The notes under the pieces are model-generated. The model was not told the DNA's origin and searched no databases. It saw only the letters and a program-made list of their open reading frames with translations. DNA of 32,393 bases from Blastocatellia bacterium. GTDB lineage: Bacteria > Acidobacteriota > Blastocatellia > Chloracidobacteriales > JADJPF01. The stretch lies in the NCBI GenBank assembly GCA_023265235.1, contig JAHFUF010000002.1:1-32393 (forward strand). Reading direction: 5' to 3'. The translations under genes and the position numbers were made by a program. Position 1 is the first letter of the stretch. Each line of letters opens with the position of its first letter. Below, piece after piece: positions 1-27,300 of this stretch.

Positions 1-1200
1 CTTTAACAACTACAGCAGCTTGTTTAATAGCGTTATAGCTATTTAAGACTGTTTCAATTTCTCCTAGTTCGATACGAAACCCTCTAACCTTTACTTGATT
101 GTCAATTCGTCCTAGAAACTCTATATTTCCATCTGCTAAGTAACGAGCTTGATCCCCTGTTGAATAAAGCCTTTCACCCAGCTTGTTACTAAATGGATTA
201 GGGATAAACCTTTCTGCTGTAAAGTCTGGACGATTGTAATATCCTCGCGCTAATGAAATGCCTCCAATATATAGCTCTCCTATTACTCCTATAGGAACAA
301 TTTTGTAGTTTTTATCAAGAATATAAGCTTTTGTATTAGCAATAGGCTTACCAATTGGTACTCTTTGTTTTTTGGCTTCACTAATACATTGATAGTAAGT
401 AGCATCTATAGTTGTTTCTGTTGGGCCATAAAGATTATAAAGCTCTGCTTTAGAAGACTTAAAGAAAAGCTCTTTTAATTGTGGACTTAAGGCTTCACCA
501 CCACAAAAAATTCGTTTTAGCTTGTTATTTGCAAACTCTTTTTCTTCAACAATTAGGCTTAAAAGCGATGGAACAAACTGAACTGTAGTAATGTTATTAC
601 TGCTAATAGTTTCTAATAAGTATTTTATATCCGAATTAAAGTCAGGTTTGGTTATTACTAGCTTTGCTCCAACAATTAGTGGAAGATAAAACTCACACAC
701 AGAAGCATCAAAACTAATAGGGGTTCTTTGTAATGTTGTATCTTCTGATGTTATAGAAAATCTGTCTTTCATCCAAATCATATGATTAGCTATAGCTTCT
801 TGGGTAATCATCACCCCTTTAGGCAAACCTGTAGACCCTGATGTATGAATTATATAGGCTATTTCCTGACCACTAATATTAAGTTTAGGGTTGTGTTTTG
901 CTGATGTGTTAAATATTGAGTCTTCTTTATCAAGATAGAGCTTAGCTACTTTTAGCTCAGAGGTTTGCTCTTTTAGCTCAGAATGAGTTATCAAAAGCTG
1001 TAGGTTTAAGTCATTAATAATAAAGTTTAGTCTATCTATTGGGTAATAAAGACTTAACGGTACATAAGCAACACCAACTTTTAGACTTGCTATCATAGCA
1101 ACAACTATTTCCAAACAGTTTTGCATATAAATGCCTACTACAGATTGTCTTTCTATTTGCGCTTTAAGATAGTTTGCAAGTTGATTAGCTTTCTCATTTA
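1..1200 (-). repeat. Tandem module duplication, distal A-domain copy (period 3162 nt)
   Basis: Aligns with 3163..4362 at a constant offset of 3162 nt (1054 codons). There is an 84-nt perfect match at 386-469 = 3548-3631. The translated A domains are nearly identical from NQLANYLK through GRIDxQVKxRGFRIELGEIE. The copy is truncated by the window edge. Confidence 0.85.
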
Positions 1201-4200
1201 ACTCTTGATAGGTAAGTACTTTGTTTTCAAAACTTACAGCTATAGATTCAGGAGTAAGTGCTACTTGTTTTTCAAATAGTTGATAAACAAACACATCTTT
1301 TGGATAGTTAACATCTGTTTGGTTAAACCCTTCTAATAGAATACTTTGCTCTTTATCATTTAATATTGGTAAGGTAGAAACCTTGTGACTAGGGTTATTT
1401 ATTAGTGACTCAAGTAAAACTTGATAATTTTCAAGCATCCTTGTTATGGTGTCATCTTCAAATAAACTAGTATTGTATGTTAATGATACTTCTAGTCCAT
1501 TGGATGTTTGAGTCATAGAACATGTTAAATCAAACTTTTCAATATTTGTCTCAATATCAAAGTAAGATAGTTCTAAATCATTGAGATTAAATGTTGATAA
1601 GTTATCTTCTTGGAGTAAAAACATAATTTGAAATATAGGAGAATAGCTTAAGCTTCTCTCAGGCTGGAGTAACTCAACTAGTTTTTCAAAAGGAATTTCT
1701 TGATGTGTATAAGCTTCTAAACAAGTTTCTCTTACTTTTTCTAACAACTCTAGAAATGAATCATTAGCCGAAAAACTAGTTCTTAATATCAGCGTATTAA
1801 GAAAAAAACCTATTAAACCTTCTGTTTCAGGATGGTTCCTTCCTGCTATTGGGCTGCCTACTATTATGTCTAGCTCTCCGCTATAACGATATAGCAAAAG
1901 CTTAAAGCTAGCTAACATTGTCATAAACAAAGTTGTGCTTGCTTTTTTACTTAAAGAAACTACCTTTTGACTTAACTCTTTTGAAACAATAGTTTGCTGT
2001 CGTCTGCCATGATGTGTTTGGTTTGTAGGTCTAGGTTTATCTATTGGTAAACTATGCAGAGGTTTAATACCTGAAAGCTTTTTCTCCCAATACTTAAATT
2101 CTTTTTCTAAAACCTCTCCTGATAACCTATCACGTTGCCATAAAGCATAGTCTACATATTGTATTGGTAATGGGTCAAAGCTAGGGGGTTGACCTGAAAT
2201 AAAACCTTGATAAAAGGAGCATAATTCTTGTAAAAAAATATTTATTGACCAAGCGTCTGAAACTATATGATGTGTGCTAAGTAATAAAATAGCAGACTCT
2301 TTTGACAATAAAAATAACATCACTCTTATTAAAGGCAATTTAGACAGGTCAAAAGCTTTACTGGCAACCTGTGTGATTAATTCTACACTTTTTTGTTTAC
2401 TTTCTACTTCTGATAAATGGGTTAAGTCTATTGTTTCTAGAGCAATATAAAAATCATCTTCTATTATTTGCACTGGTTGTTCTAAAAGAGTGCTAAACCT
2501 AGTACGTAGGCTTTTGTGTCTCTTTATAATTTCATTAACACTTTTTTCTAGGGCTGTTATATTTATAGTACCTGTTATTAATCTTGTTGTAGAGGTGTTA
2601 TAAACAGGACTATCAGGTTCAAACTCAGCCAAAAACCATAACCTTTGTTGGGCAAATGATAAAGGTAGCGATTTGGTTCTATCCACCACTATAGAGCTAA
2701 ATTCGTTAGCAGACCCAGAATAAAGCATTACTTTTTCTGCTAGGCTAGCCACAGTAGCCGAATCAAAAATATCTCGAATAGTCATTTTTATATTAAAGTT
2801 TTTTTGTATTCTAAAAATAATTTGTAAAGCTAAAAGCGAGTGACCTCCTAAAGCAAAAAAATTGTCATAAACTCCTATTTTTTCTCGTTTTAGTATTTCA
2901 GACCAAATTTTAACAACCTTTTCTTCTATGGTATTTCGAGGAGCAACAAAACCTTCTGATACTTCTATATCAGGGGTTGATAGTGCATTTCGGTCTATTT
3001 TCCCGTTTGGCATTAATGGAAAAAAGGGTAAAAAAACATAGCCTGTAGGGATCATATAACTTGGTAACTTAACTCTTAGTATCTGTTGAACTTCTTGTAA
3101 TGTCATCTCTATTGACTTTGTAACCAAGTAAGCAACTAAACCTTTATCCCCTTTACTATTTTCTTTAGCAAGGACTACAGCGTCTTTTATAGTTGGGATT
3201 TCTAAAAGTGCTGATTCAATTTCTCCCAACTCTATCCTAAATCCTCTTATTTTTACTTGACTGTCAATTCGTCCTAGAAACTCAATATTTCCATCAGTTA
3301 AGTAGCGAGCTAAGTCTCCTGTTGAATACAGCCTTTCACCTAGTTTGTCACCAAAAGGATTAGGGATAAACCTTTCTGCTGTAAAGTCTGGACGGTTGTA
3401 ATACCCTCGTGCTAATGCAACACCTCCAATAAACAACTCTCCTACTACTCCAATAGGCACAATATTTAAGTGTTTATCTAAAATATAAGTCTGTAAACCA
3501 TCAATAGGCTTACCAATTAGTACTGGCTGTTTTTTAGCATCATTAACACATTGATAGTAAGTAGCATCTATAGTTGTTTCTGTTGGGCCATAAAGATTAT
3601 AAAGCTCTGCTTTAGAAGACTTAAAGAAAAGTTCTCTTAATTGTAAGCTCAATGCTTCACCACCACAAAAAACTCGTTTTAGCTTGCTATCAGTAAACTC
3701 TTTTTCTTCAACAATTAGGCTTAAAAGTGATGGGACAAACTGAACTGTAGTGATGTTATAGCTGCTAATAGTTTCTAGTAAATATTTTATATCAGCATTA
3801 AGGTCAGGTTTGGTTAAAACTAGCCTTGCTCCAACAATTAGCGGAAGATAAAACTCCCATACAGAAGCATCAAAACTAATGGATGTTCTTTGTAATGTTG
3901 TATCTTCTGATGTTATAGAAAATCTATCTTTCATCCAAACCATATGATTAGTTATAGCTTCTTGGGTAATCATTACTCCTTTAGGCAAACCTGTAGACCC
4001 TGACGTGTGAATGATATAGGCTATTTCCTGACCACTAATATTAATTTTGGGGTTGTGTTTTGCTGATGTATTAAATATTGAGTTTTCTTTATCAAGATAG
4101 AGCTTAGCTACTTTTAGCTCAGAGACTTGCTCTTTTAGCTCAGAATGAGTTATCAAAAGCTGTAAGTTTAAGTCATTAATAATAAAATTTAATCTATCTA

Positions 4201-7200
4201 TTGGATAATAAAGACTTAGTGGGACATAAGCAATACCTGACTTTAGACTTGCTATCATAGCAACAACTATTTCCAAACAGCTTTGCATATAAATGCCTAC
4301 TATAGCTTGTCGTTCGATTTTCACTTTAAGATAGTTTGCAAGTTGATTAGCACGCTCGTTAAGTTGTTGATAAGTAAGCGACTTTCCTTCTAAGATCACA
4401 GCTATATTATTAGGTGTTTGTAAGGCTTGTTCTTGCAAAAGTTCAGGTAAAAATTTTTCTACACAATAACCCTTTTGCCAACTATTAAACCCCACTATTT
4501 GATTATATTCACTTTTATCTAAAAATGAGATTTGAGAAATAGGAGTTTTTCTATCAACTAATATTTTCTCTAACAAAGTTTGATAGTGTTTTGACATTCT
4601 TAAAATAGTGTTTTGATCAAAAAGGTCAGAATTATATTCCCACACTAAAGAAATCTGTTTTACATTAGAAGAAGAATTTGCTCCAATAGATTGTTCAAAA
4701 TGAGGGATAACAATAGCGGTAAGATCAAACTTAGAAGAGCCATTACTTAATGCTTCTGTTAGGTTTATGTCTACTTCAGGGAACTCTAGTTTTGGAATTT
4801 GCGCGTCATGGAAACTAAAAAACACTTGGCATATTGGAGAATAGCTTAAACTACGTGCTGGATTTACTGCATCAACAACCCTATCAAAAGGAATGTCTTG
4901 GTTTTCATAAGCTGCTAGTGTTGTGTGTTTTATTTTTTCTAATAAATCGTCAAACCTTTCTTCTTCTGACAAGATACTTCTTAGGACTATATTATTAACA
5001 AACATGCCTATAATATTTTCTACTTCTTGTAAGCGTCGATTAGCAATTGTTGAGCCTAAAGCTATATCTTTTTGACCACTATAACGATAAAGCAGGATTG
5101 TAAAAGCGGCAGACATCACCATAAATAATGTAGTTTCTTTCTCCCTGCTTAAATTACGTAGCGATTGACAAAGCTCTTCTGATAAGTGCTGTCTAAAGCT
5201 ACTACCTTGAAAAGTTTGCAGACTAGGGCGCACACGATCATAAGGAAGTGTTAGTAATGGAGGGCAACCTGTTAAATTGTTTTTCCAGTAAGCAGATTGA
5301 GCCTTGGCAGCTTGAGTTTCTAACCATTGATGTTGCCAAGCAGCAAAATCAACAAACTGTATTTTAAGCTCTTCTAATTTTGGATTCTGGCCTAAGTAGT
5401 AAGCTTGATAAAGAGTTACTAGCTCTTTAAGAAATACATTAAAAGACCAACCATCATGAACTATATGATGTTCACTATGAATTAAAACATGCTCTCTATG
5501 GCTTAAACGTATTATCAGCCAACGAATCAAATATAACTCTGATATATCAAACTCTTTAGAAATTTGATCATTAATTAATTTTTCTAACTTAAGTGTTTTT
5601 TCTGCTTCTGGTATTTCGCTTAAATTAATAACAGGAACACTATTAAAGTGATGTGGATGAATAATTTGTACTGGTTCTTCACCAACTATACTAAATGTAG
5701 TACGAAATATTTCATGTCTATTTATAATCTCATTAAAACACTTTTCTAGAATGTTAATGTTTAAGTTACCTTTTAACTCTAACTTAGAATGAAAAGTATA
5801 GGCTAAAGGGTTTGATGCTAGTTGTTGAATAAACCAAACTCTTTTTTGGGAAAACGATAGAGGTAAGGGCTGATGGCGAGGGATAGGAGTAATTTTTTCT
5901 ACAACTGACAAAGATTTTGATTTTGATAGGTCGAGTTTTTTGGCAAGCTGAGCTAAGGTTTCTGAGCTAAAAAAAGTACTTAAAGATAGTTCTACTTGAA
6001 AGTGTTCACGAATTCGACTAACTACCCTAGTTGCTAGTAAAGAATGTCCCCCTAGTTCAAAAAAATTATCAGACCTGCTTACATTTCTTACAGCTAAAAC
6101 TGTTTCCCAAATATTGGCTAATATTTTTTCTTCTTCTGTAGCAGGTGGGTCATAATCTCTAGCTTCACTTAATTCTTGGCTTAGAGCTAAAAGTGCTTTT
6201 CTATCTACTTTTTCATTTGCCGTTAGAGGAAACTCATCTATTTTAATAAATCGGCTAGGCACCATATGCTCTGGTAATTGTTTGCCCAAAAACTCTTTTA
6301 TCTCGTTTACAATAAAACCTACATTTTCTTTAACCCCTAGATATGCAATTAATTGTTTGTCTCCTAAAGGTGTCTCGCCTACTAATACAACACTTTGTTT
6401 AACTACAGGGTGTGTGTCCAAAACAGTTTCTATTTCACCCAATTCTATACGATAGCCTCTAACTTTTACTTGATTGTCTTTACGTCCAAAAAATTCAATA
6501 TTCCCATCTGGTAGATAACTAGCCAAATCTCCAACTTTATAAAGCCTTGCACCTGGTTTAGAGCTAAAAGGATTAGGAAGAAACCTTTCTGCTGTTAAGT
6601 CTGCTTTGGCTAAATATCCTCTTGCTAACCCGTCTCCTGATGTATAGAGTTCTCCCATAACTCCTATTGGTACAATATTAAAGTCTTCATCTACTATATA
6701 AATCTCTGTATTAGAAACAGGACATCCAATAGAAACTGTTCTACCTACTTGGCTTACATCTGTCATAACATAGCAGGAAGTAAAAGTAGTGTTCTCTGTT
6801 GGCCCATAGCCGTTAATTAGTGTTATTCCTGGTACTTGCTCTAGTAACTTCTTTACCTGTTTTACTCCTAGTACATCGCCTCCTGAGAATAGATATTTTA
6901 ACCCTCTAAAACAATCTATTTGTTCTTCTACCATTTGGTGAAATATGGCTGATATTAGCCAAAGAACTGTTATTTTGTATTCTTTTATTTTTCTTCCTAG
7001 ATCATTTAACGAAGGTTTGTAAGCAGGAAACACTACGAGTTTTGCACCATTGAGTAGGCTACCCCATATCTCAAAAGTAGAGACATCAAAAGAAATAGGT
7101 GTAAATTGTAAAAATACGTCCTGTGATTGGATTTTTATATAGTTAGTTTCTTTGATTAACCGAACTATTGATTGGTGACAAACAATCACTCCTTTAGGAT

Positions 7201-7594
7201 TACCCGTTGAACCTGACGTATATATAACATACGCCATATTTTCTGGTCTTACTAAAACGCTAAAATTACTGGTAGACTCTTTTTCTATTTCTTCCCAATC
7301 TTGGTCTAAACAAATAGTATTATTGCTTATAGCTTCTATTTTATCTCTTAACCTTTTTTGCGTTAAAATAACCTCTGCCTTAGCGTCTTTAATTAAGTAT
7401 TCTAGTCTTTTTTCAGGGTAAGCAGTTTCTAAAGGTAAGTATCCTGCACCTGCTTTTATAATAGCTAATACAGCAATTATCATTTCTAAGGAACGCTCTA
7501 AGCAAACTCCTACTAAGGTTTCTTCTTTTATTCCTTGTTTTCTTAAATAACTTGCTAATTGATTTGCTTTCTCGTTTAGCTCTTTATAGGTCAA
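1..7594 (-). CDS. Non-ribosomal peptide synthetase, 3' end runs off the left window edge: A-T-C-A-T-C-A(partial)
   Basis: Absent from the supplied ORF track because it has no stop inside the window. Hand translation of the minus strand (codon first bases at positions equal to 1 mod 3) is stop-free from 7684 to base 1. Motifs read directly, in order: first A domain YTSGSTG 7202-7222, NGYGPTE, GRKDNQVKVRGYRIELGEIE, NEKVDRK ~6200-6220. Carrier FELGGHS (Ser 6041-6043). C domain HHIVHDGWS 5444-5470. Second A domain HTSGSTG 3989-4009 with 10-residue code DAWQFGLIDK (Gln-type). Carrier ALGGHS (Ser 2837-2839). C domain HHIVSDAWS 2246-2272. Third A domain (code so far DACQFGLID) readable through GRIDNQVKVRGFRIELGEIE at ~60-120. 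Coordinate 7594 is the first canonical in-frame start (TTG) after the last upstream stop. The true start is uncertain. Confidence 0.9.
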   Translation of the reverse strand, partial: MTYKELNEKANQLASYLRKQGIKEETLVGVCLERSLEMIIAVLAIIKAGAGYLPLETAYPEKRLEYLIKDAKAEVILTQKRLRDKIEAISNNTICLDQDWEEIEKESTSNFSVLVRPENMAYVIYTSGSTGNPKGVIVCHQSIVRLIKETNYIKIQSQDVFLQFTPISFDVSTFEIWGSLLNGAKLVVFPAYKPSLNDLGRKIKEYKITVLWLISAIFHQMVEEQIDCFRGLKYLFSGGDVLGVKQVKKLLEQVPGITLINGYGPTENTTFTSCYVMTDVSQVGRTVSIGCPVSNTEIYIVDEDFNIVPIGVMGELYTSGDGLARGYLAKADLTAERFLPNPFSSKPGARLYKVGDLASYLPDGNIEFFGRKDNQVKVRGYRIELGEIETVLDTHPVVKQSVVLVGETPLGDKQLIAYLGVKENVGFIVNEIKEFLGKQLPEHMVPSRFIKIDEFPLTANEKVDRKALLALSQELSEARDYDPPATEEEKILANIWETVLAVRNVSRSDNFFELGGHSLLATRVVSRIREHFQVELSLSTFFSSETLAQLAKKLDLSKSKSLSVVEKITPIPRHQPLPLSFSQKRVWFIQQLASNPLAYTFHSKLELKGNLNINILEKCFNEIINRHEIFRTTFSIVGEEPVQIIHPHHFNSVPVINLSEIPEAEKTLKLEKLINDQISKEFDISELYLIRWLIIRLSHREHVLIHSEHHIVHDGWSFNVFLKELVTLYQAYYLGQNPKLEELKIQFVDFAAWQHQWLETQAAKAQSAYWKNNLTGCPPLLTLPYDRVRPSLQTFQGSSFRQHLSEELCQSLRNLSREKETTLFMVMSAAFTILLYRYSGQKDIALGSTIANRRLQEVENIIGMFVNNIVLRSILSEEERFDDLLEKIKHTTLAAYENQDIPFDRVVDAVNPARSLSYSPICQVFFSFHDAQIPKLEFPEVDINLTEALSNGSSKFDLTAIVIPHFEQSIGANSSSNVKQISLVWEYNSDLFDQNTILRMSKHYQTLLEKILVDRKTPISQISFLDKSEYNQIVGFNSWQKGYCVEKFLPELLQEQALQTPNNIAVILEGKSLTYQQLNERANQLANYLKVKIERQAIVGIYMQSCLEIVVAMIASLKSGIAYVPLSLYYPIDRLNFIINDLNLQLLITHSELKEQVSELKVAKLYLDKENSIFNTSAKHNPKINISGQEIAYIIHTSGSTGLPKGVMITQEAITNHMVWMKDRFSITSEDTTLQRTSISFDASVWEFYLPLIVGARLVLTKPDLNADIKYLLETISSYNITTVQFVPSLLSLIVEEKEFTDSKLKRVFCGGEALSLQLRELFFKSSKAELYNLYGPTETTIDATYYQCVNDAKKQPVLIGKPIDGLQTYILDKHLNIVPIGVVGELFIGGVALARGYYNRPDFTAERFIPNPFGDKLGERLYSTGDLARYLTDGNIEFLGRIDSQVKIRGFRIELGEIESALLEIPTIKDAVVLAKENSKGDKGLVAYLVTKSIEMTLQEVQQILRVKLPSYMIPTGYVFLPFFPLMPNGKIDRNALSTPDIEVSEGFVAPRNTIEEKVVKIWSEILKREKIGVYDNFFALGGHSLLALQIIFRIQKNFNIKMTIRDIFDSATVASLAEKVMLYSGSANEFSSIVVDRTKSLPLSFAQQRLWFLAEFEPDSPVYNTSTTRLITGTINITALEKSVNEIIKRHKSLRTRFSTLLEQPVQIIEDDFYIALETIDLTHLSEVESKQKSVELITQVASKAFDLSKLPLIRVMLFLLSKESAILLLSTHHIVSDAWSINIFLQELCSFYQGFISGQPPSFDPLPIQYVDYALWQRDRLSGEVLEKEFKYWEKKLSGIKPLHSLPIDKPRPTNQTHHGRRQQTIVSKELSQKVVSLSKKASTTLFMTMLASFKLLLYRYSGELDIIVGSPIAGRNHPETEGLIGFFLNTLILRTSFSANDSFLELLEKVRETCLEAYTHQEIPFEKLVELLQPERSLSYSPIFQIMFLLQEDNLSTFNLNDLELSYFDIETNIEKFDLTCSMTQTSNGLEVSLTYNTSLFEDDTITRMLENYQVLLESLINNPSHKVSTLPILNDKEQSILLEGFNQTDVNYPKDVFVYQLFEKQVALTPESIAVSFENKVLTYQELNEKANQLANYLKAQIERQSVVGIYMQNCLEIVVAMIASLKVGVAYVPLSLYYPIDRLNFIINDLNLQLLITHSELKEQTSELKVAKLYLDKEDSIFNTSAKHNPKLNISGQEIAYIIHTSGSTGLPKGVMITQEAIANHMIWMKDRFSITSEDTTLQRTPISFDASVCEFYLPLIVGAKLVITKPDFNSDIKYLLETISSNNITTVQFVPSLLSLIVEEKEFANNKLKRIFCGGEALSPQLKELFFKSSKAELYNLYGPTETTIDATYYQCISEAKKQRVPIGKPIANTKAYILDKNYKIVPIGVIGELYIGGISLARGYYNRPDFTAERFIPNPFSNKLGERLYSTGDQARYLADGNIEFLGRIDNQVKVRGFRIELGEIETVLNSYNAIKQAAVVVK
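3163..4362 (-). repeat. Tandem module duplication, proximal A-domain copy (period 3162 nt)
   Basis: Same evidence as 1..1200. Similarity decays upstream of about 4350, at the N-terminal part of the A domain and the C-A linker. Confidence 0.85.
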
Positions 7595-7712
7595 TTGTCG
7601 AGATTCAAATTCAATTGCTATAACTTCTGGAGTTGTTCTTACTACTTCTTCAAATAGTTCTACAATAGTCTTATCCTTTGGATAATTAGTAGCAGTATTA
7701 TTAATTTGCAAT
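6164..7712 (-). repeat. Starter A-domain cassette, copy 1 (direct repeat of 14723..16281)
   Basis: Colinear with the 5' end of the neighbouring NRPS gene at an offset of 8559-8569 nt. There is a 140-nt perfect match at 6633-6772 = 15192-15331, and 2 mismatches in 58 nt at 7383-7440 versus 15951-16008. Similarity ends exactly after the codons for SQELSE (6164 / 14723). Confidence 0.9.
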
Positions 7713-7756
7713 GGCAAGTCTTGCTTATCACAATGAGCTAGTTTTTTCTCTAACAT
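7595..7756 (-). other. Frame-broken 5' leader of the left NRPS gene (possible frameshift, pseudogenisation or sequencing error)
   Basis: ATG 7754-7756 has an AAAGG motif at 7762-7766 and is in the same frame as the gene body. That frame contains TGA 7727-7729 and TAA at 7724-7726, 7700-7702, 7697-7699 and 7685-7687. Segment 7681-7740 reads LAHCDKQDLPLQINNTATNY only in another frame, where it matches the paralogue (LSLQVNNTATNY). Left copy TATCAAAG (7676-7683) versus paralogue TATCCAAAG (16244-16252) shows a 1-nt deletion. Confidence 0.6.
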
Positions 7757-7876
7757 AAATACCTTTAAGTTTTAGAATTTATTAGAATGCTTAAAACTGT
7801 AAATTTTAGCTAAGGAGAGTCTTTAAAACCATATTAACCCACTAGGAAAAACATAGTAGGGGCGAACAGTTCACCC

Positions 7877-16611: not shown

Positions 16612-19600
16612 ATGACAGATTTTTCACATTTATCATTAACAGAGAAAAGAGAACTTCTAGCAAAATTATTACAAAAACCCTTAAAGGACAAAATATTTCC
16701 TTTGTCCTTTGCCCAACAACGTCTTTGGTTTTTGGATAAATTAGAGCCAATGAATTCTGCTTATAATATTTCTACAGGCTTTCTTTTAGAAGGAAACTTA
16801 AATGTAGAATACCTAGAACAAAGTATTAATGAAATTATTAAGAGACACGAAAGCCTAAGAACTAGTTTTGAAACAATTTCTGGCCAACCTAAACAAATTA
16901 TTAAAGAAGCGCGAAACCTGTCTTTAACAAAAGTGGATTTAGGACAAACCCCGTTAAATCAACAACAAGATGAAATAGCAGCAATTGCCTTAAAAGATGC
17001 TAAAGAACCTTTTGAACTCTCAGAGTGGCCATTGCTAAAAGTAAAACTACTTTATTTCTCAGAAAACAAACATGTACTACTCCTAGTAATTCATCACATT
17101 ATTAGCGACAATTGGTCTATTTCATTATTTCTACAAGAGTTACAAGAGTTTTATCAAGCTTTTTATTATAAAAGAGACCCTAAAATAAAACCTTTAAGAA
17201 TCCATTATGGCGATTTTTCGGTTTGGCAAAGAGAATATTTACAAGGAGAGGTTTTAGAAAAAGAATTAAGTTACTGGAAACAAAAACTAAGTAAAAACCT
17301 ACCTGTATTAAACTTAGCCTTAGATCACCCAAGGCCACCATTACAAAGCTACAAAGGGGCTAATATATTTATAGAAGTCCCAAAAGAAATCTTTGAGAAG
17401 CTAAAAAATATTTGCACCCAGCAACAAGTTACTTTATTTATCTTATTACTAACCGCTTTTAGTACACTGCTTTACAAATACACAGGACAAACAGATTTAC
17501 TTATAGGATCTCCTGTTGCTAATCGTAACCGTAGTGAATTTGAAGACTTAATTGGGCTACTAATTAATATGTTAGTCCTAAGAATAGACCTATCAGGAGA
17601 ACCAACTTTTCTTGAAATGCTCAAGCGTGTACGTGAAATTGTACTAGATGCTTGTGCTCACCAAGAAGTTCCTGTAGAAAAATTGGCTGAAGAAATACAA
17701 CCCCGACGAGATTTAAGCACCCCATTTGTACAAGCAAGTTTTTCTCTCAATGAAGGTGTGTCAAACTTGGTGTTACCAGAACTGGCAGTCACTAGATTAG
17801 TCATTCATAACAACACAGCAAAAGTAGACTTAAACCTAGAATTAAAAGAAGCTAATGGAGTGTTAACAGGAATTTTTAACTATAACTCTGATTTATTTGA
17901 TGAAAGTACGGTTAAACAAATCTCGTTAGACTTTGAAAACCTATTAACTTTTGTAACAAATAATCCAGAACAACATATTAATTTATTACCTAATTTAATA
18001 TTGCCCGCAGACAAAAAAAATTATGTTAATAATGAAGAAAAAACAAACTTAAGTTCTAATCAATTACTAGTTTGGTTAGGACAAAAATTACATCCTAATG
18101 TCCCGCTTTATAATATTCCAATCTTTGCCATTATTTCTGGTCAAATAGACATAGACAATTTACGACAAGCCTTTCAAATCTTGGTTAACTCTGCTGACAT
18201 GCTTAGAACAGTAATTGAAGAGGTTCAAGGAGTAGCACAACAAAAAGTGTTGTCAGAATTAAATTACTTACTTGATTATTTTGATTTTTCAAACCTTACT
18301 TCAGAGTCGCAACTACAAGATTGGATGGTGGAAAAGTCACAATATATTTTTAATAACAACGAAGTCCTCTTTTACTCTGCCCTAGTGAAACTGCCTAATA
18401 ATAGCCTAGCATGGTATCTCAATATGCATCATTTGATTGGAGATGGTTGGTCAGGGCCATTAATTTTTGAGCGTGTATCAGAGATTTACCAACAATTGGT
18501 ATCTGATAGCTTTGAGACTTTTTCACTACCTCAATTTCAAGATTATTTGTTAAAAGAAAAACAAGAAAAAGCTTCTAAACGTTATTTATCTGCTCTGAAT
18601 TATTGGCAGAAAAAGCTATCAATAACTGCTGAACCAATTGTTTTTTATGGGCAAAAAAATGAAAAAATATCTACAAAAATTAAGCGTATTAAATATAACA
18701 TTAATACTGAAAATACTAATAAGTTAAAAGCTATTACTACAGAAGAAAATATCTCGATTCTTAATATTTTTACCGGGCTGCTTTTTACTTATTTGTACCG
18801 TATTAGCGGACACTCGTTAATTTCTATTGGCGTACCTTTTCATAACCGCCGTAGTAAAGCTTTTAAGCATACCATTGGGCCGTTTATGGAAGTATTGCCA
18901 TTACAAGTTAGTATTTCTAAGGAAGAAACTTTTGCTTCACTAATTAAAAAAGTAAAATTAGAGACTTTTGAAATACTTCGCCATGATATTTCTGTAAATA
19001 ATCCTATTAATCGTAAACATTACGATGTTTTTCTTAATTATCATAGTGAGGGACAATACAAGTTCAATTTTAATAACAAGGCTGTAGATGTTGGTTGGGT
19101 AGCAACTGGTTATGAAACCTACAATTTAGCCTTACAGGTTCATGATTTTGGGCTACTAGGGAATTTTGTTATAGATTTTGACTTCAACACAGAGCTTTTT
19201 GATCAGGAGCAACAAACTTGGGTAATAAATCATTTTACTCAACTGCTAAATATTTATTTAACTCAAGGTAGCCAAACAAGTCTAAAAAATACTAGCTTAC
19301 TTCTGCCAGAAGAACGAGAGCATATCTTATTAGGTTTTAATCAAAGTCAGCAAAATGTTCCTTTTGAACAAAACTTTGCACAGCTTTTTACCCAACAAGT
19401 AGCTAAGAATAGAGAAAAAATTGCTGCTGTTTATGGCAAAGAACAACTAACGTATCAAGAGCTAAACTTTCGTGCTAATAAATGTGCTCAGCAGCTTATA
19501 GACAAAGGAATTGGCCTAGACAACATAGTAGGATTGTTTGCACGACGGGGCTTAGAGCTACTTATTTCTATTTTAGCTGTGTTTAAGGCTGGTGCAGCCT

Positions 19601-21300
19601 ATTTACCGCTAGATCCAAATTATCCAGCCAAAAGACTTAGCTATATCCTTAATCATAGTGAAACAAAAACCATTCTAGTTACTAGGGAGATGAAAACTAG
19701 TTTAATTACTAGTCTACAAGAATTACCTAAAACAGAATGGCCAGAAATTATTGAAATAGAAGAATTATTAGAACAAACCATTGATGTTAAAGAAATAACC
19801 TCTCCTGTCCAACCGGATAATCTTGCTTATGTAATATACACTTCTGGTTCAACAGGGCTGCCAAAAGGTGCAATGGTAGCTAGTAAAGGGATGATAAACC
19901 ACTTATATGCTAAAGTTTTTGACTTAAAACTTACAGAAAAAGATTATATCGCACAAACTGCTTCACAATGTTTTGACATCTCTGTTTGGCAATTTCTCTC
20001 AGCATTAATTGTAGGTGGCAAAGTAGAAATTATTGACGATGAAATAGTGCTAGATCCTTTAAGACTACTTAACTTAGTGGCTAGCCAGCAAATATCTATC
20101 CTAGAAGTAGTTCCATCACTACTTAGCGCGATGTTAAATAGTATTACTGTTCAAAAACCAAATCTATCTCTTTTAAGATGGCTGGTTGTAACTGGAGAAG
20201 CCTTTGCTCCAGAACTCTGTCGTCAATGGATGTTAGACTATCCAGAAGTTCTAGTAATGAATGCTTATGGCCCAACAGAGTGTTCTGATGATGTTACTCA
20301 TTATTTAATTACTTCTACATTGCCTAAAGAAATGACTTATATGCCAATAGGCTGTCCAGTAATTAATATGCAGCTTTATATACTAGACCAGCATTTATCT
20401 CCTGTACCTATTGGAGTTGTAGGAGAAATCTATGTAGGAGGAATTGGAGTAGGACGAGGTTACTTAAAAGATCCTGAAAAAACTGCCAATGTCTTTTTGC
20501 CTAATCCTTTTGCAATGTCATCAGGAGAAAGACTTTATAAAACAGGTGACCTAGGAAGATGGTTAATAAACGGCGAAATAGAGTTTTTAGGCAGAATAGA
20601 CCATCAAATAAAAATACGCGGTTTCCGTATAGAGCTAGGAGAAATAGAATCTGTATTAAGAGAATATCCTGAAGTTAAAGACGTTGTTGTAGTAGCCAAA
20701 TCTTTAGATACTACCGAAAACACCGAAAACACTAATAGCTTAAAAACTAGCCAAGATAACGTAATTGTTGCTTATTTAGTGGCAAGAAGCTCACAATTCC
20801 TTATTAGCAGCTTACGTGAGTTTATGCAGGAAAAATTGCCTGACTATATGGTGCCAGGGTTGTTTATGTTCTTAGACACTTTACCTCTTAACCCTAATGG
20901 TAAAGTAGATCGCGCTCTACTTCCTGAACCAAAAAGGGATCGTGAGCAAACACAAAACCATTATATCGCCCCTAGCACAGAGGTTGAGCAACAGATTGCT
21001 AATGTTTGGGGAAGGTTATTAAAAATAGATAAAATAGGGGTTAATGACAATTTTTTTGACCTAGGAGGACATTCACTTTTACTTGTCCAGGTGCAAAACA
21101 AACTAAAAGAGCTTGTAGGAAAAGAAATACCTTTAGTGGAAATGTTTCGCCATCCTACAGTAAGTTCTCTAGCTAATTATTTTACTCAGCTAACTCAGAC
21201 TCTTAAGCAAGTTGACCAGGAAGATTTTTCAGAAGTTAAAGAACGTGCAAGAAAACGTACAACTACAAAACGCCAAAGACCGCAGGGGGCTTATGAATAA
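16612..21300 (+). CDS. Non-ribosomal peptide synthetase, 1562 aa: C-C-A-T
   Basis: ORF track entry. Domain order:
- N-terminal helix LSLTEKRELLAKLLQK.
- C1, aa 27-455: LSFAQQRLWFL, HHIISDNWS at nt 17092-17118.
- C2, aa 478-895: EntF/DhbF-like N-terminus LSSNQLLVWLGQKLHPNVPLYN, HHLIGDGWS at nt 18427-18453.
- A, aa 920-1435: YTSGSTGLPKG, NAYGPTECSDD, YKTGD, NGKVDR. Code DIWEVTADDK.
- T: DLGGHS Ser1488, nt 21073-21075.
- Basic tail KERARKRTTTKRQRP. Confidence 0.95.
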   Translation: MTDFSHLSLTEKRELLAKLLQKPLKDKIFPLSFAQQRLWFLDKLEPMNSAYNISTGFLLEGNLNVEYLEQSINEIIKRHESLRTSFETISGQPKQIIKEARNLSLTKVDLGQTPLNQQQDEIAAIALKDAKEPFELSEWPLLKVKLLYFSENKHVLLLVIHHIISDNWSISLFLQELQEFYQAFYYKRDPKIKPLRIHYGDFSVWQREYLQGEVLEKELSYWKQKLSKNLPVLNLALDHPRPPLQSYKGANIFIEVPKEIFEKLKNICTQQQVTLFILLLTAFSTLLYKYTGQTDLLIGSPVANRNRSEFEDLIGLLINMLVLRIDLSGEPTFLEMLKRVREIVLDACAHQEVPVEKLAEEIQPRRDLSTPFVQASFSLNEGVSNLVLPELAVTRLVIHNNTAKVDLNLELKEANGVLTGIFNYNSDLFDESTVKQISLDFENLLTFVTNNPEQHINLLPNLILPADKKNYVNNEEKTNLSSNQLLVWLGQKLHPNVPLYNIPIFAIISGQIDIDNLRQAFQILVNSADMLRTVIEEVQGVAQQKVLSELNYLLDYFDFSNLTSESQLQDWMVEKSQYIFNNNEVLFYSALVKLPNNSLAWYLNMHHLIGDGWSGPLIFERVSEIYQQLVSDSFETFSLPQFQDYLLKEKQEKASKRYLSALNYWQKKLSITAEPIVFYGQKNEKISTKIKRIKYNINTENTNKLKAITTEENISILNIFTGLLFTYLYRISGHSLISIGVPFHNRRSKAFKHTIGPFMEVLPLQVSISKEETFASLIKKVKLETFEILRHDISVNNPINRKHYDVFLNYHSEGQYKFNFNNKAVDVGWVATGYETYNLALQVHDFGLLGNFVIDFDFNTELFDQEQQTWVINHFTQLLNIYLTQGSQTSLKNTSLLLPEEREHILLGFNQSQQNVPFEQNFAQLFTQQVAKNREKIAAVYGKEQLTYQELNFRANKCAQQLIDKGIGLDNIVGLFARRGLELLISILAVFKAGAAYLPLDPNYPAKRLSYILNHSETKTILVTREMKTSLITSLQELPKTEWPEIIEIEELLEQTIDVKEITSPVQPDNLAYVIYTSGSTGLPKGAMVASKGMINHLYAKVFDLKLTEKDYIAQTASQCFDISVWQFLSALIVGGKVEIIDDEIVLDPLRLLNLVASQQISILEVVPSLLSAMLNSITVQKPNLSLLRWLVVTGEAFAPELCRQWMLDYPEVLVMNAYGPTECSDDVTHYLITSTLPKEMTYMPIGCPVINMQLYILDQHLSPVPIGVVGEIYVGGIGVGRGYLKDPEKTANVFLPNPFAMSSGERLYKTGDLGRWLINGEIEFLGRIDHQIKIRGFRIELGEIESVLREYPEVKDVVVVAKSLDTTENTENTNSLKTSQDNVIVAYLVARSSQFLISSLREFMQEKLPDYMVPGLFMFLDTLPLNPNGKVDRALLPEPKRDREQTQNHYIAPSTEVEQQIANVWGRLLKIDKIGVNDNFFDLGGHSLLLVQVQNKLKELVGKEIPLVEMFRHPTVSSLANYFTQLTQTLKQVDQEDFSEVKERARKRTTTKRQRPQGAYE

Positions 21301-24300: not shown

Positions 24301-27300
24301 CCATTTTTGGTTATCAGACTCTTCAGACTCTAAAACTATTGACGTTTTATCAGAGATTAATTTTGACGAAATCCAACAATTAGGATACGTTAGTTTACTT
24401 AATACTGTAAAAGCTTTATCAAGAGAGGGTTTTACTCACAAGATTAAGTTATTTTTTATCTCAAACAATATATTTTCAGTAACTGGACAAGAAACGCTTT
24501 GTCCAGCAAAAGCAACCACTGTAGGGCTTTGTCGGGTTATTTCTCAAGAAAACCCTAATATTTATGCTAGCAATATTGACATATCTGGAGACTTGCCACT
24601 AGAAACCCTGGCCAAAGAAATAATTTTTTCTACAACCTCCCCAACTAAAGAATTAACTATCGCATATCGTGGACGTTACCGTTGGTTACCGGACTACCAG
24701 CCATTTTTGTTAAACACAAAAATGCTACCATTAAAAGAAAATGGAGTTTATTTAATTACTGGTGGTTTAGGGGGTTATGGGCTAGAAATTGCTGAATATT
24801 TAGCTCATAAAGTAAAAGCAAAATTAGCCCTAGTAAACCGTAGTAGCTTTCCACAAAAAAGTGAATGGCAAAGCTATCTAAATAATCTAGATAGCTCAAA
24901 CAATCCAAACAATGAGGTTAGCCAGAAAATTAAACGGCTACAAGCTTTAGAATCTTTAGGCGCGACCATATTAACCTTTTCTGCTGATGTTACTAATTTT
25001 CACGAAATGCAGTCAGTAGTTGAGCAAGTAACAAATAAATTAGGCAACATCAATGGTGTATTACATTTAGCAGGTTTAGTAGGTGGGGGGTTAATTGAAA
25101 TCAAAGACTGGTCAGATATGGCCAATGTTATTAATACCAAAGCAAAAGGGACAATAACATTAGCAAAGTTATTTCTAGCACAAAAATTAGACTTTTTTAT
25201 TTTATTCTCTAGCATTAACGCTATTTTAAGCAGGTATGGTCAATCAGATTACTGTGGTGCCAACGCCTTCCTAGACGCTTTTGCTTATTATTTCAACCAA
25301 TTTACCCTAACAATATCAATTAATTGGGAAACTTGGCAAGATACTGGTATGGTCGCAGTTAAACAACCTATCAATGAAAGAGCTAATTTATGGAAAGAGG
25401 AAATGGAGACTCTGACTAGCACAATGTCTGTTAAAGAAGGAGTCAAAGCATTTGAAAGAGCCTTAACAGTTCAAGTACCTCAAGTAATAGTGTCTAGTAG
25501 AAACTTTTCTTTATTATGGAAATATTACCAGGAAAAATTAGCAAAGATAGAATTACAAAATACTCCAACAACTATAACCCAAACCTATTCCCGTCCAATA
25601 TTAGCTACTAAGTATGTTGAGGCTAGCAATGATACAGAACAAAAATTAGTGGAAATCTGGCAAGAAGCTTTAGGTTTTACACCGATAGGTATTTATGATA
25701 ATTTTTTTGACTTAGGTGGTGATTCAGTTATAGCTATTCAACTAGCAGCAAAAGCCAATAAAAAAGGGTTGAAAATTAGCTCAAAACAATTTTTTGAACA
25801 CCAAACCATCGCTGATTTAGCTAATAATATTACCCATAGCCAAACCAAAATAGACCAAGAGGTTGTTACAGGTTTTGTCCCATTAACCCCAATTCAAAAA
25901 TGGTTTCTTAATCAAAATTACCATAATCTTAATCATTTTAACCAAGCAGTAAGGCTAAAGGCTAGTCAACCAATAGATTCAGCTTTACTAGGAAAAGCCC
26001 TTCAAATCCTAGTTACACATCACGATGCGTTACGGATGAGATTTTTTCAAGAAAATGGTGAATGGCAGCAATTTAACGCTGAAGTAGACAATAATGTTGA
26101 TTTTTTAACCACCATTGATTTAATTAACTTATCAGACTCAGAGCAATCGAAAGCCATTGAATCAGCAGCAAACAAAGCTCAAAAAAGCCTAGATATAAGA
26201 CAAGGAAAGGTTTTCTCTGCCCTACTTTTTTCCTTAAGTAAACTAGACTATCAGTTACTAATAATTGCTCATCATTTAGTCATTGATATAATTTCTTGGC
26301 CAATATTATTAGAAGATTTAGAAACAGCTTACCAACAACTTAGTCAATCCTCACCTGTTTTATTACCTAATAAAACTACTTCATTTAAGAATTATGCTGA
26401 AAAATTATTAGTCTATTTAGAGTCAATAACAGAAGAACAAAACTATTGGTTAACCCTTGCTTGGGAACGTTTTTCTCCATTATTTGTTGATTATCCAGAT
26501 CAAGATAATAATTTTTCTAATCTAGAACAAATAAACCTATCCTTTAGTGTTGAAGAAACTAATAGTTTAATAAAAGAAATAACCAAAACTTACAAAATAC
26601 GAGTCCAAGATCTATTAATAGCAATTTTGGCAGAAAGCTTTTCTCGTTGGGCTGATATTTCTACTGTGGCTATTGATGTAGAAATGCATGGTAGAGAAGA
26701 AATTGCTCCAGAAATAGACCTATCACGCACAGTAGGTTGGTTTACCAGTGTTTTCCCACTTGTAATAGATTTTAGTAAAGCTAATACATTAAATGAGCGT
26801 GTTAGTTATGTAAAATGGTACATCAATAACATTCCAGCTAACAATGGTATTGGTTATGGTTTACTCCATTTGTCTTCAGACAAAGAGCTACTAAAAAAGC
26901 TACTGCTACTGCCAACCCCTGAAATTAATTTTTTATATTTAGGACAAACTAGAAATACTAATGACCAAGAAAAGCTCTTTTTTACTACGTCAGACTCTTG
27001 TGGAGAAACTATTGATAGAAAGCAAAAACGCAGATATTTATTTGAGATAGTTGGGAAAGTTATAGAAAATAAATTACAAATAAATGTATTTTATAATCAA
27101 AGGCAATACAAAAAATCAACAATTGATTTACTGTCTCAAAGCTTAACTAATGTAGTTAAAGAATTAATTTTTAATGCTCCAAAAAATATTTTATTAGAAA
27201 ATAATAATAATGAAATAGAGCAAAATAAAATAGAATTTTTAGATATTTCACAGCAAAAACAAATCGCTACACAGCTAGGTTATCAGCCTACAGAGGTTTA

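Follow-up and report, generated by a model that had tools for sequence, protein, structure and literature searches.

Four large synthetase genes followed by two further genes occupy a 32,393-nucleotide (nt) stretch of DNA from a Blastocatellia bacterium (GenBank assembly GCA_023265235.1, contig JAHFUF010000002.1, positions 1 to 32,393 of the forward strand), referred to here as the window; its G+C content is about 33%. One of the large genes, orfC, encodes a subunit of a nonribosomal peptide synthetase (NRPS) in which two condensation (C) domains, C1 and C2, stand in tandem before a single adenylation (A) domain and a single thiolation (T) domain. The parts of orfC, assigned from the list of open reading frames, the translation, Pfam, a phmmer map, and extraction of the A-domain code, are as follows.

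16612-21300, plus strand: orfC, a 1562-amino-acid (aa) NRPS subunit with a docking N-terminus followed by C1-C2-A-T
16612..16689, plus strand: N-terminal 26 aa (MTDFSHLSLTEKRELLAKLLQK...), a probable docking helix for an upstream subunit, kept in the relatives L004 and L003
16690..17982, plus strand: C1, an LCL-type condensation domain, with HHIISDNWS at 17092-17118
17983..18045, plus strand: C1-C2 linker of about 21 aa, starting with the usual C-A linker motif INLLP
18046..19326, plus strand: C2, an embedded starter-like condensation domain, with HHLIGDGWS at 18427-18453
19387..20904, plus strand: A domain, code DIWEVTADD, predicted to load 2,4-diaminobutyrate (Dab)
20977..21201, plus strand: T domain, the sole acceptor carrier for both C domains

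Pfam found two Condensation stretches in orfC (E = 2.5e-167 for the whole protein) and, downstream of them, one match each to AMP-binding (aa 926-1285), AMP-binding_C (aa 1344-1431), and PP-binding (aa 1460-1523); phmmer mapped C1 to aa 27-457, C2 to aa 479-905, the A domain to aa 926-1431, and the T domain to aa 1456-1530. Given these E values, chance is no issue for the domain calls. C2 is complete, aligning over its full length with the C domains of SrfA-C, McyB, and RzmA-Cs, and the two programs agree with what had been proposed from the letters without database searches, namely, that two full C domains precede one A-T pair. The motifs quoted in that sequence-only reading, including the INLLP linker and HHLIGDGWS, all lie where it placed them; in protein coordinates the motifs of orfC are LSFAQQRLWFL (aa 31-41), HHIISDNWS (aa 161-169), (H)INLLP (aa 455-460, or nt 17974-17991), LSSNQLLVWLGQKLHPNVPLYN (aa 480-501), and HHLIGDGWS (aa 606-614). 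The HHxxxD motif is thus intact in both C domains. Inspection of the 21-aa linker between them revealed no remnant of an A or T domain.

C1 and C2 are of different types, since they match each other with 71 to 74 bits, whereas C1 matches the other elongation C domains of the window with 270 to 350 bits. The best matches of C1 among solved structures were Txo2 (5e-87), Txo1, and TycC (1.9e-72), and in the PvdL model PRK05691 it aligned with the second C domain, which is of the LCL type (positions 1725-2163). C2 aligned with the first, acyl-accepting C domain of the same model (positions 671-1118); in PvdL this domain takes an acyl chain from a loading AL-T pair. As a single sequence, C2 matched solved structures weakly (E = 1e-22), the top match being PDB entry 8XJZ. 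A profile built from the family alignment A1, which comprises close relatives of C2, scored best against RzmA-Cs (175 bits), a modest lead over McyB (162 bits), and lower against EntF (107 bits) and VibH (49 bits), so that the likeness to the EntF/DhbF class suggested earlier for C2 holds only approximately. RzmA-Cs, a starter domain, takes its acyl groups from acyl-CoA, and small residues at its gate residue R148 let in longer acyl chains (PMC7804268); in our alignment C2 carries Gly at this position. Against the MxcG model C2 scored 99.9 bits and C1 85 bits. An AlphaFold2 model of C2 from a six-sequence alignment reached a mean pLDDT (predicted local distance difference test score) of 62, too poor for a fold search.

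A neighbor-joining tree of 74 C-superfamily domains (409 columns, Poisson distances, 100 bootstraps), built without authentic IcoA CI or NaPDoS reference sequences, separated the two domains in the same way. The C2 family was monophyletic (100% bootstrap) and sister to C domains located at the N-termini of large NRPSs (88%), and these two groups together stood apart from the LCL and DCL domains (86%). C1 nested within the LCL domains together with eight other domains that directly precede a C2 (98%). The sequence-only reading had called C1 LCL-like, which the tree, the Txo2 and TycC matches, and the PvdL alignment all bear out; it had also named subtype assignment as a check on whether the pair might be two ordinary LCL domains, and with C2 outside the LCL group and both motifs intact, it is not. 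On these alignments, C1 is classed as an ordinary LCL elongation domain and C2 as a member of a distinct, well-conserved, starter-like clade.

The didomain is retained in the nearest relatives, which are 95% (L004) and 69% (L003) identical. The ratio of nonsynonymous to synonymous substitution (dN/dS) between the window and L004 was 0.13 for C1, 0.135 for C2, 0.11 for the A domain, and 0.13 for the T domain; between the window and L003 the corresponding values were 0.14, 0.22, 0.15, and 0.19. Both C domains are under purifying selection like that on the A and T domains. Colinear homologues of C1-C2 were found in P0002 (69% identity, C1-C2-A-T) and in P0102 (C1-C2-A-T), which belongs to a group at 41 to 42% identity that also includes free-standing C1-C2 proteins, P0060 and P0093, the latter from a metagenome-assembled genome (MAG) of Pyrinomonadaceae.

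To follow the family beyond these relatives, a profile scan with the A1 alignment, using one genome per species, gave 73 loci. An exhaustive HMMER search was made of a library of 1.84 billion proteins, with matches ordered by summed megasynthetase scores; the 150 best were taken, 148 of them new, and their domains were remapped with our own HMMs. In the genome loci C2 occurs in two contexts: it either opens a subunit or stands immediately after another C domain, as C-C2-A-T or as a free-standing C-C2 pair. The second context accounts for more than 20 of the 73 loci and spans about ten phyla; these in-line loci come from Acidobacteriota, Binatia, Planctomycetota, Omnitrophota, Dadabacteria, Gammaproteobacteria, and others, with further cases in Chloroflexota, Ktedonobacteraceae, and Syntrophobacteraceae. 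About 30 of the 148 new proteins carry the didomain, and among the 150 best library matches, strong C2 domains were placed between a C and an A domain in 22 cases, at the N-terminus in 8, and at the end of a C-C2 protein in 2. In about 50 other didomains the linker between C and C2 measures 0 to 30 aa. The first C domain retains HHxxxD in 47 of 50 didomains; among 108 C2-type domains in any position, 92 have HHxxxD and 11 have HQxxxD/E. A search of a plasmid collection returned no member of the C2 family (best match, 26% identical).

Some of these loci have features of their own. Two MAGs of Omnitrophota carry three C-C2-A-T modules in series (L043, 4909-19425; L072, 6833-21349), with the A-domain codes DAESLGTVV, DLKNVGSDV, and DVWH...; a product with several acyl groups would result if every such module introduces a branch. 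Three other didomain loci have odd neighbors (L001, 9648-17160; L009, 8282-15841; L002, 7314-11867): two of them encode a free-standing C-C2, then a DUF3326 protein, and then an A-T-E subunit (E, epimerization domain), and in the third a pyridoxal phosphate-dependent decarboxylase gene lies just upstream. This gene content hints that some didomains may act on a specially made amino acid or a free amine.

The position of C2-type domains relative to other domains follows a pattern. In the 148 library proteins, only 4 of 605 C-like domains that directly follow a T domain score best with the C2 profile; the corresponding counts are 27 of 118 for C-like domains at protein N-termini and 29 of 35 for those that immediately follow another C domain. 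Because C2-type domains avoid the position after a T domain, the donor of C2 is not expected on a T domain upstream in cis. When an E domain is present upstream, the domain that precedes C2 is of the DCL type (L010, P0178, P0194), which argues that the first C domain handles the upstream chain and that C2 is an added function.

The A domains behind C2 are also distinctive. Of 89 such A domains, 82 have codes that are Dab-like, Orn, Ser, Lys/Orn-like, or Asx-like, compared with 30 of the 82 A domains that stand behind ordinary C domains in these proteins. The recurring examples are DIWExTADD (Dab-like), DVGEIGSID (Orn), DVWHISLID (Ser), and the Lys/Orn-like codes DAEDIGTVV, DTEDIGTV, and DAWEFGTVD. 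Judged from these codes, the binding pockets behind C2 are mostly of the kind expected for residues that offer two nucleophiles. Within the PvdL model, the best alignment of the A-T part of orfC is to the final module (3726-4319, 639 bits), which we take to load Dab with the code DIWELTADDK; a literature search for that string gave nothing, and the PvdL Dab module was not among the PDB alignments of the orfC A domain.

The other large genes of the window show where orfC is likely to receive its chain and where it passes it on.

2-7771, minus strand: orfA, A-T-C-A-T-C-A..., with its C-terminus cut by the window edge
7880-16324, minus strand: orfB, A-A-T-C-A-T-C-T
8030..9670, minus strand: terminal C-T of orfB (C, 8375-9670; T, 8030-8236), the probable donor carrier for C1
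21293-28987, plus strand: orfD, ketosynthase-acyltransferase-ketoreductase-acyl carrier protein-E-DCL-T (KS-AT-KR-ACP-E-DCL-T), the downstream partner of orfC (Pfam, phmmer, NCBIfam)

A distant homologue, P0207 (3847 aa), has the order ...C-A-T-C-T-C1-C2-A-T in one chain and is colinear with residues 544-2764 of orfB and then residues 20-1542 of orfC. The C-terminal tail of orfB (...LNELSDKDVDKWLK) is homologous to that of the A-T-C-A-T protein of L003 (...QLPDEEVEKLLKK), and these tails together with the N-terminus of orfC presumably form docking elements. From the P0207 fusion and the homology of the orfB tail to that of the L003 upstream subunit, we conclude that orfB feeds C1. The terminal C-T of orfB is itself incomplete: at the junction (8237-8374, minus strand) an A10-motif remnant, SAFVFLEEPPKNSNGKIDQQSL, stands directly after INLLP and is followed by the T domain, so that an A domain was lost there in frame. 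Since P0207 shares the C-T-C-C2-A-T order, the A-less C-T may nevertheless be old and functional, with its T domain loaded in trans. Two sites besides that in orfC had been noted earlier as linkers without an A domain behind them; the one in orfB is a genuine case of this kind, whereas the supposed C-C pair in orfD proved to be an E-DCL pair.

Downstream, the ATG of orfD overlaps the stop codon of orfC (ATGAATAA overlap), indicating translational coupling, and L005 fuses C-C2-A-T-KS-AT-KR-T-E in one protein; on the strength of this overlap and this fusion, orfC feeds the polyketide synthase (PKS) module of orfD, whose domain order is 95% conserved in L004. The C-terminal part of orfD (25898-28855) has, after KS-AT-KR-ACP, an E domain with its own motif intact (HHLVIDIISW, TIGR01720), a DCL domain, an A-less T domain, and a docking-type tail; its E and DCL domains map onto the PvdL model (NCBIfam). 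An epimerase acting on an ACP-bound, polyketide-extended intermediate, as the order in orfD implies, is unusual. No release domain was seen in the window.

The order found in orfC, two adjacent C domains and then a single A-T pair, is that of module 3 of IcoA, the icosalide synthetase of Burkholderia gladioli (LCL-CI-A-PCP), which has "an LCL domain directly followed by a CI domain" (Jenner et al. 2019, PMC6553374). In that system a CI-A-PCP construct N-acylates Ser-PCP with 3-hydroxyacyl thioesters, a His-to-Ala mutation abolishes the reaction, and the authors proposed that the LCL domain joins the upstream lipopeptide to the hydroxyl so introduced (PMC6553374). The tandem condensation domains of icosalide biosynthesis were described in 2019 as without precedent (PMC6553374), and a 2023 review still gives icosalide as the example of such an arrangement (PMC10510592). 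Phrase searches of the literature yielded no characterized tandem-C case besides the icosalide synthetase. That enzyme is reportedly also treated by Dose et al. in 2018. Both systems place an LCL domain, then a second C domain with its catalytic His intact, of the CI type in IcoA and starter-like in orfC, and then one A-T pair; the loaded residue has a side-chain nucleophile in IcoA (Ser) and is predicted to have one in orfC; the outcome proposed here, a second acylation on one carrier-bound residue, would also be shared. They differ in that C2 belongs to a clade of its own, distant (about 25% identity) from characterized starter domains; the residue of orfC is predicted to be Dab instead of Ser; the second linkage is an ester on a 3-hydroxyacyl group in IcoA and possibly an amide on a side-chain amine in orfC; and orfC passes its product to a PKS module, whereas IcoA passes it to another NRPS module and a thioesterase (TE). 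In addition, orfC comes from an acidobacterial lineage.

By analogy with IcoA module 3, we lean somewhat toward reading orfC as a dual-condensation branching module, in which C1 would use the chain from orfB and C2 a donor supplied in trans, both acting on one T-bound Dab. The A domain would charge the single T domain with a residue that offers two nucleophiles, Dab by prediction. C2, which occupies the normal C-A-T slot, would acylate one of the nucleophiles with a donor from outside the upstream T in cis. The likeliest such donor is an acyl-CoA or acyl-ACP thioester; a chain bound to the carrier of another subunit, for example orfA, is less probable. C1 would move the peptidyl chain from the terminal T domain of orfB onto the second nucleophile of the same T-bound intermediate, and the doubly acylated residue would then go to the coupled orfD module. 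The domain architecture, the two subtypes, their conservation and selection, the positional rule of C2, and the link between orfB and C1 are the observations that this scheme draws together; from them we infer catalytic activity of both domains, the donor of C2, the atoms acylated, and the order of reactions.

The proposed donor of C2 can be set beside the gene context of the family. In the branch with C2 at the N-terminus, a conserved cluster recurs (L054, 2686-17083; L013, 2983-15601; L049; L030; and about 25 other loci) with the order HupE/UreJ, an ornithine-cyclodeaminase-family protein, a 535-aa protein, an acyl-CoA dehydrogenase, a stand-alone acyl-CoA-ligase-like enzyme, C2-A-T(-E), and a TonB-dependent receptor. 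The A domain of its C2-A-T(-E) has the code DLTKIGEVG and an insert of about 330 aa with a weak match to QueC. The cluster, found in Bacteroidota (Leptobacterium, L054), Cyanobacteria (Dapis, L013, and Crocosphaera), Chloroflexota, and Planctomycetota, looks from its gene content like a metallophore cluster. Loci of this branch, such as L054 and L013, have the acyl-CoA-ligase-like and acyl-CoA dehydrogenase genes and no carrier protein gene, which fits an acyl-CoA donor.

Several observations weigh against the dual-condensation proposal. No gene for a fatty acyl-AMP ligase (FAAL), a free ACP, or an acyl-CoA ligase was found by Pfam in the 32-kb window, and in a neighbor survey of 17 in-line loci no accessory gene recurred among the families listed (25 of 53), the recurring neighbors being transporters and thioesterases only; C2 could use acyl-CoA or acyl-ACP from primary metabolism. 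C2 is only about 25% identical to characterized starter domains, and the starter-position domains used for comparison were picked partly by their C2-profile score, so that this comparison is partly circular. About 10% of C2-type domains have Gln for the second His, and some members of the clade may lack catalysis. In L022, L029, and L032 the protein that precedes an N-terminal C2 domain ends in a T domain, and C2 may there be an ordinary elongation domain between subunits. The enrichment of A codes behind C2 is not phylogenetically independent, because C2 and the A domain tend to be inherited together; several different codes do occur within C2 subclades. The Dab prediction for the orfC A domain depends in part on the specificity assumed for the last PvdL module. 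Finally, the motif of C1 is HHxxxDN instead of HHxxxDG; the same Gly is also substituted in other C domains of the window that occupy ordinary T-C-A positions (HHIVSDAWS in orfA).

In an alternative that we regard as unlikely, orfC would be the junction of two peptides, with C1 taking the chain of orfB and C2 that of orfA and both chains meeting on the amines of Dab. This is close to the suggestion made earlier that both C domains act on one acceptor and join two separately initiated chains. The first half of that suggestion now fits better, with IcoA module 3 as its precedent (PMC6553374); the second half finds less agreement. It had been pointed out correctly that two genes begin with loading-type A domains. 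Among the subunits of the window, only orfC opens with condensation domains, of which it has two; a docking-type tail follows the last T domain of both orfB and orfD; and some N-terminal C2 domains elsewhere come after T-ending proteins (L022, L029, L032), so that the clade can probably take carrier-bound donors. The second of these loading domains, however, is a recent duplicate: the first A domain of orfB (14683-16285) and that of orfA (6121-7717) are 84% identical in DNA over 1.6 kb, which accounts for the A-A tandem at the start of orfB. In L003 there is a single subunit of this kind (A-T-C-A-T, 74 to 78% identical) as the one upstream NRPS, L004 has none adjacent, and no second initiating subunit is seen in P0207 or in most of the in-line loci. 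The C-terminus of orfA, where a docking tail or TE would lie, is beyond the window.

It seems to us less probable still that a single domain condenses, C2 performing all transfers while C1, with its HHxxxDN motif, serves as a silent scaffold or docking platform, or the reverse. The altered Gly of C1 and the HQxxxD/E motif in about 10% of C2-type domains would suit such a loss, and in some lineages one partner may indeed be catalytically lost. Yet the first C domain keeps both His residues and the Asp in 47 of 50 didomains, dN/dS is the same for C1 as for the A domain, the Gly substitution recurs in the T-C-A domains noted above, and the first C domain turns DCL exactly when an E domain precedes it, as would be expected only if it handled the upstream donor.

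We give little credence to a third possibility, in which C2 does not condense and instead recruits or positions a tailoring enzyme on the T-bound residue, as an interface or X domain does. Its place directly before the A domain does resemble the interface-domain arrangement of beta-hydroxyaspartate siderophores (PMC12628792; antiSMASH 8), a TonB gene adjoins the L003 relative, and TonB receptors occur in the N-terminal C2 clade. Among 51 neighbor proteins of the 17 in-line loci, however, there was no tailoring gene and no TauD-type hydroxylase in the 25 of 53 families listed, nor does one recur in the window, and recruitment is disfavored on this ground; HHxxxD is kept in 92 of 108 C2-type domains, the in-line A codes are Dab-, Orn-, Ser-, or Lys-like instead of Asp or His, and the solved structure nearest to C2 is that of a starter C domain that is active.

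The first of the two explanations in the sequence-only reading, that an A-T pair between C1 and C2 was deleted and left one C domain stranded and decaying, is very unlikely at orfC even though C1 ends with the usual C-A linker motif and the locus has been rearranged elsewhere (the A10 remnant in orfB, the A-A duplication, and a break in L004 synteny at 16565), because the linker lacks any trace of an A or T domain, purifying selection acts on both C domains (dN/dS of 0.13 to 0.22), HHxxxD is intact in each, the arrangement is kept in L004 and L003, and the same C-C2-A-T order with a linker of 0 to 30 aa recurs as an old arrangement across many phyla.

Comparison with other systems helps to place the dual-condensation proposal. 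The lipo-initiation starter domains (RzmA-Cs, PDB 7C1H/7C1K; SrfA-A; CDA-C1; and the first C domain of PvdL) resemble C2 in that RzmA-Cs is its best solved match, the first C domain of PvdL aligns with it, its clade is sister to N-terminal C domains, and N-terminal C2 loci have an acyl-CoA context. Classical domains of this class sit at the N-terminus with an acyl-activating enzyme or carrier nearby, whereas C2 starts at aa 479 behind C1, the window has no acyl-activating gene or such carrier, and the identity is about 25%. E-DCL pairs (T-E-C-A-T) likewise place two C-fold domains between a T and an A domain, and orfD has one; the first domain of orfC is LCL instead of an epimerase, and some relatives have E-DCL-C2-A-T. 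Tandem Cy-Cy heterocyclization domains are known from VibF and AngN. These have DxxxxD in place of HHxxxDG, whereas C1 and C2 both carry HHxxxD. MxcG (Lys) and VibH/VibF (norspermidine) are alike in that their C domains use donors in trans to create branch points on di- or polyamines, but they reuse one C domain or employ a free-standing one, have aryl donors, and lack a fused pair of LCL and starter-like domains. The interface domain of NRPSs for beta-hydroxyaspartate siderophores is said to have been described by Reitz et al. in 2019. It is also a C-superfamily domain directly before an A domain, often in a siderophore context, but its partners are Asp or His modules and a hydroxylase of the TauD type; the orfC code is DIWEVTADD, and no hydroxylase was found in the window.

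Tandem C domains violate the colinearity rule behind structure prediction in genome mining. Here a pair of LCL and starter-like domains occurs in a lineage distant from the icosalide producer, belongs to a conserved clade with members in dozens of genomes across phyla that are mostly uncultured, and is associated with amino acids bearing a second nucleophile. If dual acylation is correct, the didomain would give a sequence signature for branch points and a portable C2-A-T unit for engineering a second acyl chain into peptides. It is conceivable, if rather doubtful, that the C2 clade as a whole marks a general branching module spanning phyla, with the residue (Dab, Orn, Lys, or Ser) behind an embedded C2 acylated twice. 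Were this so, branched or two-tailed nonribosomal peptides would be predictable from sequence, the dual priming of icosalide would be a rare cultured example of a widespread logic, and the main users of that logic would be uncultured members of the Acidobacteriota, Binatia, Planctomycetota, and Omnitrophota, among which stacks of three such modules occur.

The surroundings of orfC and orfD appear to have changed recently. Synteny between the window and L004 begins abruptly at 16565, beside an AT-rich repeat (ctagttaataaactagtttattaactagtttatt, in the orfB-orfC intergenic region, 16525-16565), and to its left L004 has an AraC regulator, two aldo-keto reductases, and an RRXRR protein in place of orfB and orfA. 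By this comparison the orfC-orfD pair behaves as a unit with recently changed neighbors. Within orfA, the second and third A domains (49-1244 versus 3211-4406) are 88% identical in DNA and have Gln-like codes (DAWQFGLID and DACQFGLID); this identity points to a recent internal module duplication. The two remaining genes of the window follow orfD.

29011-29688: CcbP calcium-binding-domain protein, 225 aa, adjoining the beta-propeller/cytochrome-c gene
29861-32377: orfF, beta-propeller/cytochrome-c protein, 838 aa

The CcbP domain family was described from cyanobacteria, but the cyanobacterial origin that this domain might suggest for the window is not supported. The named homologues of orfF, at 50 to 64% identity, all come from Blastocatellia or other Acidobacteria. 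The nearest genome record, L004, is labeled a Clostridia MAG, and since the named homologues of orfF are all acidobacterial, that label is probably wrong.

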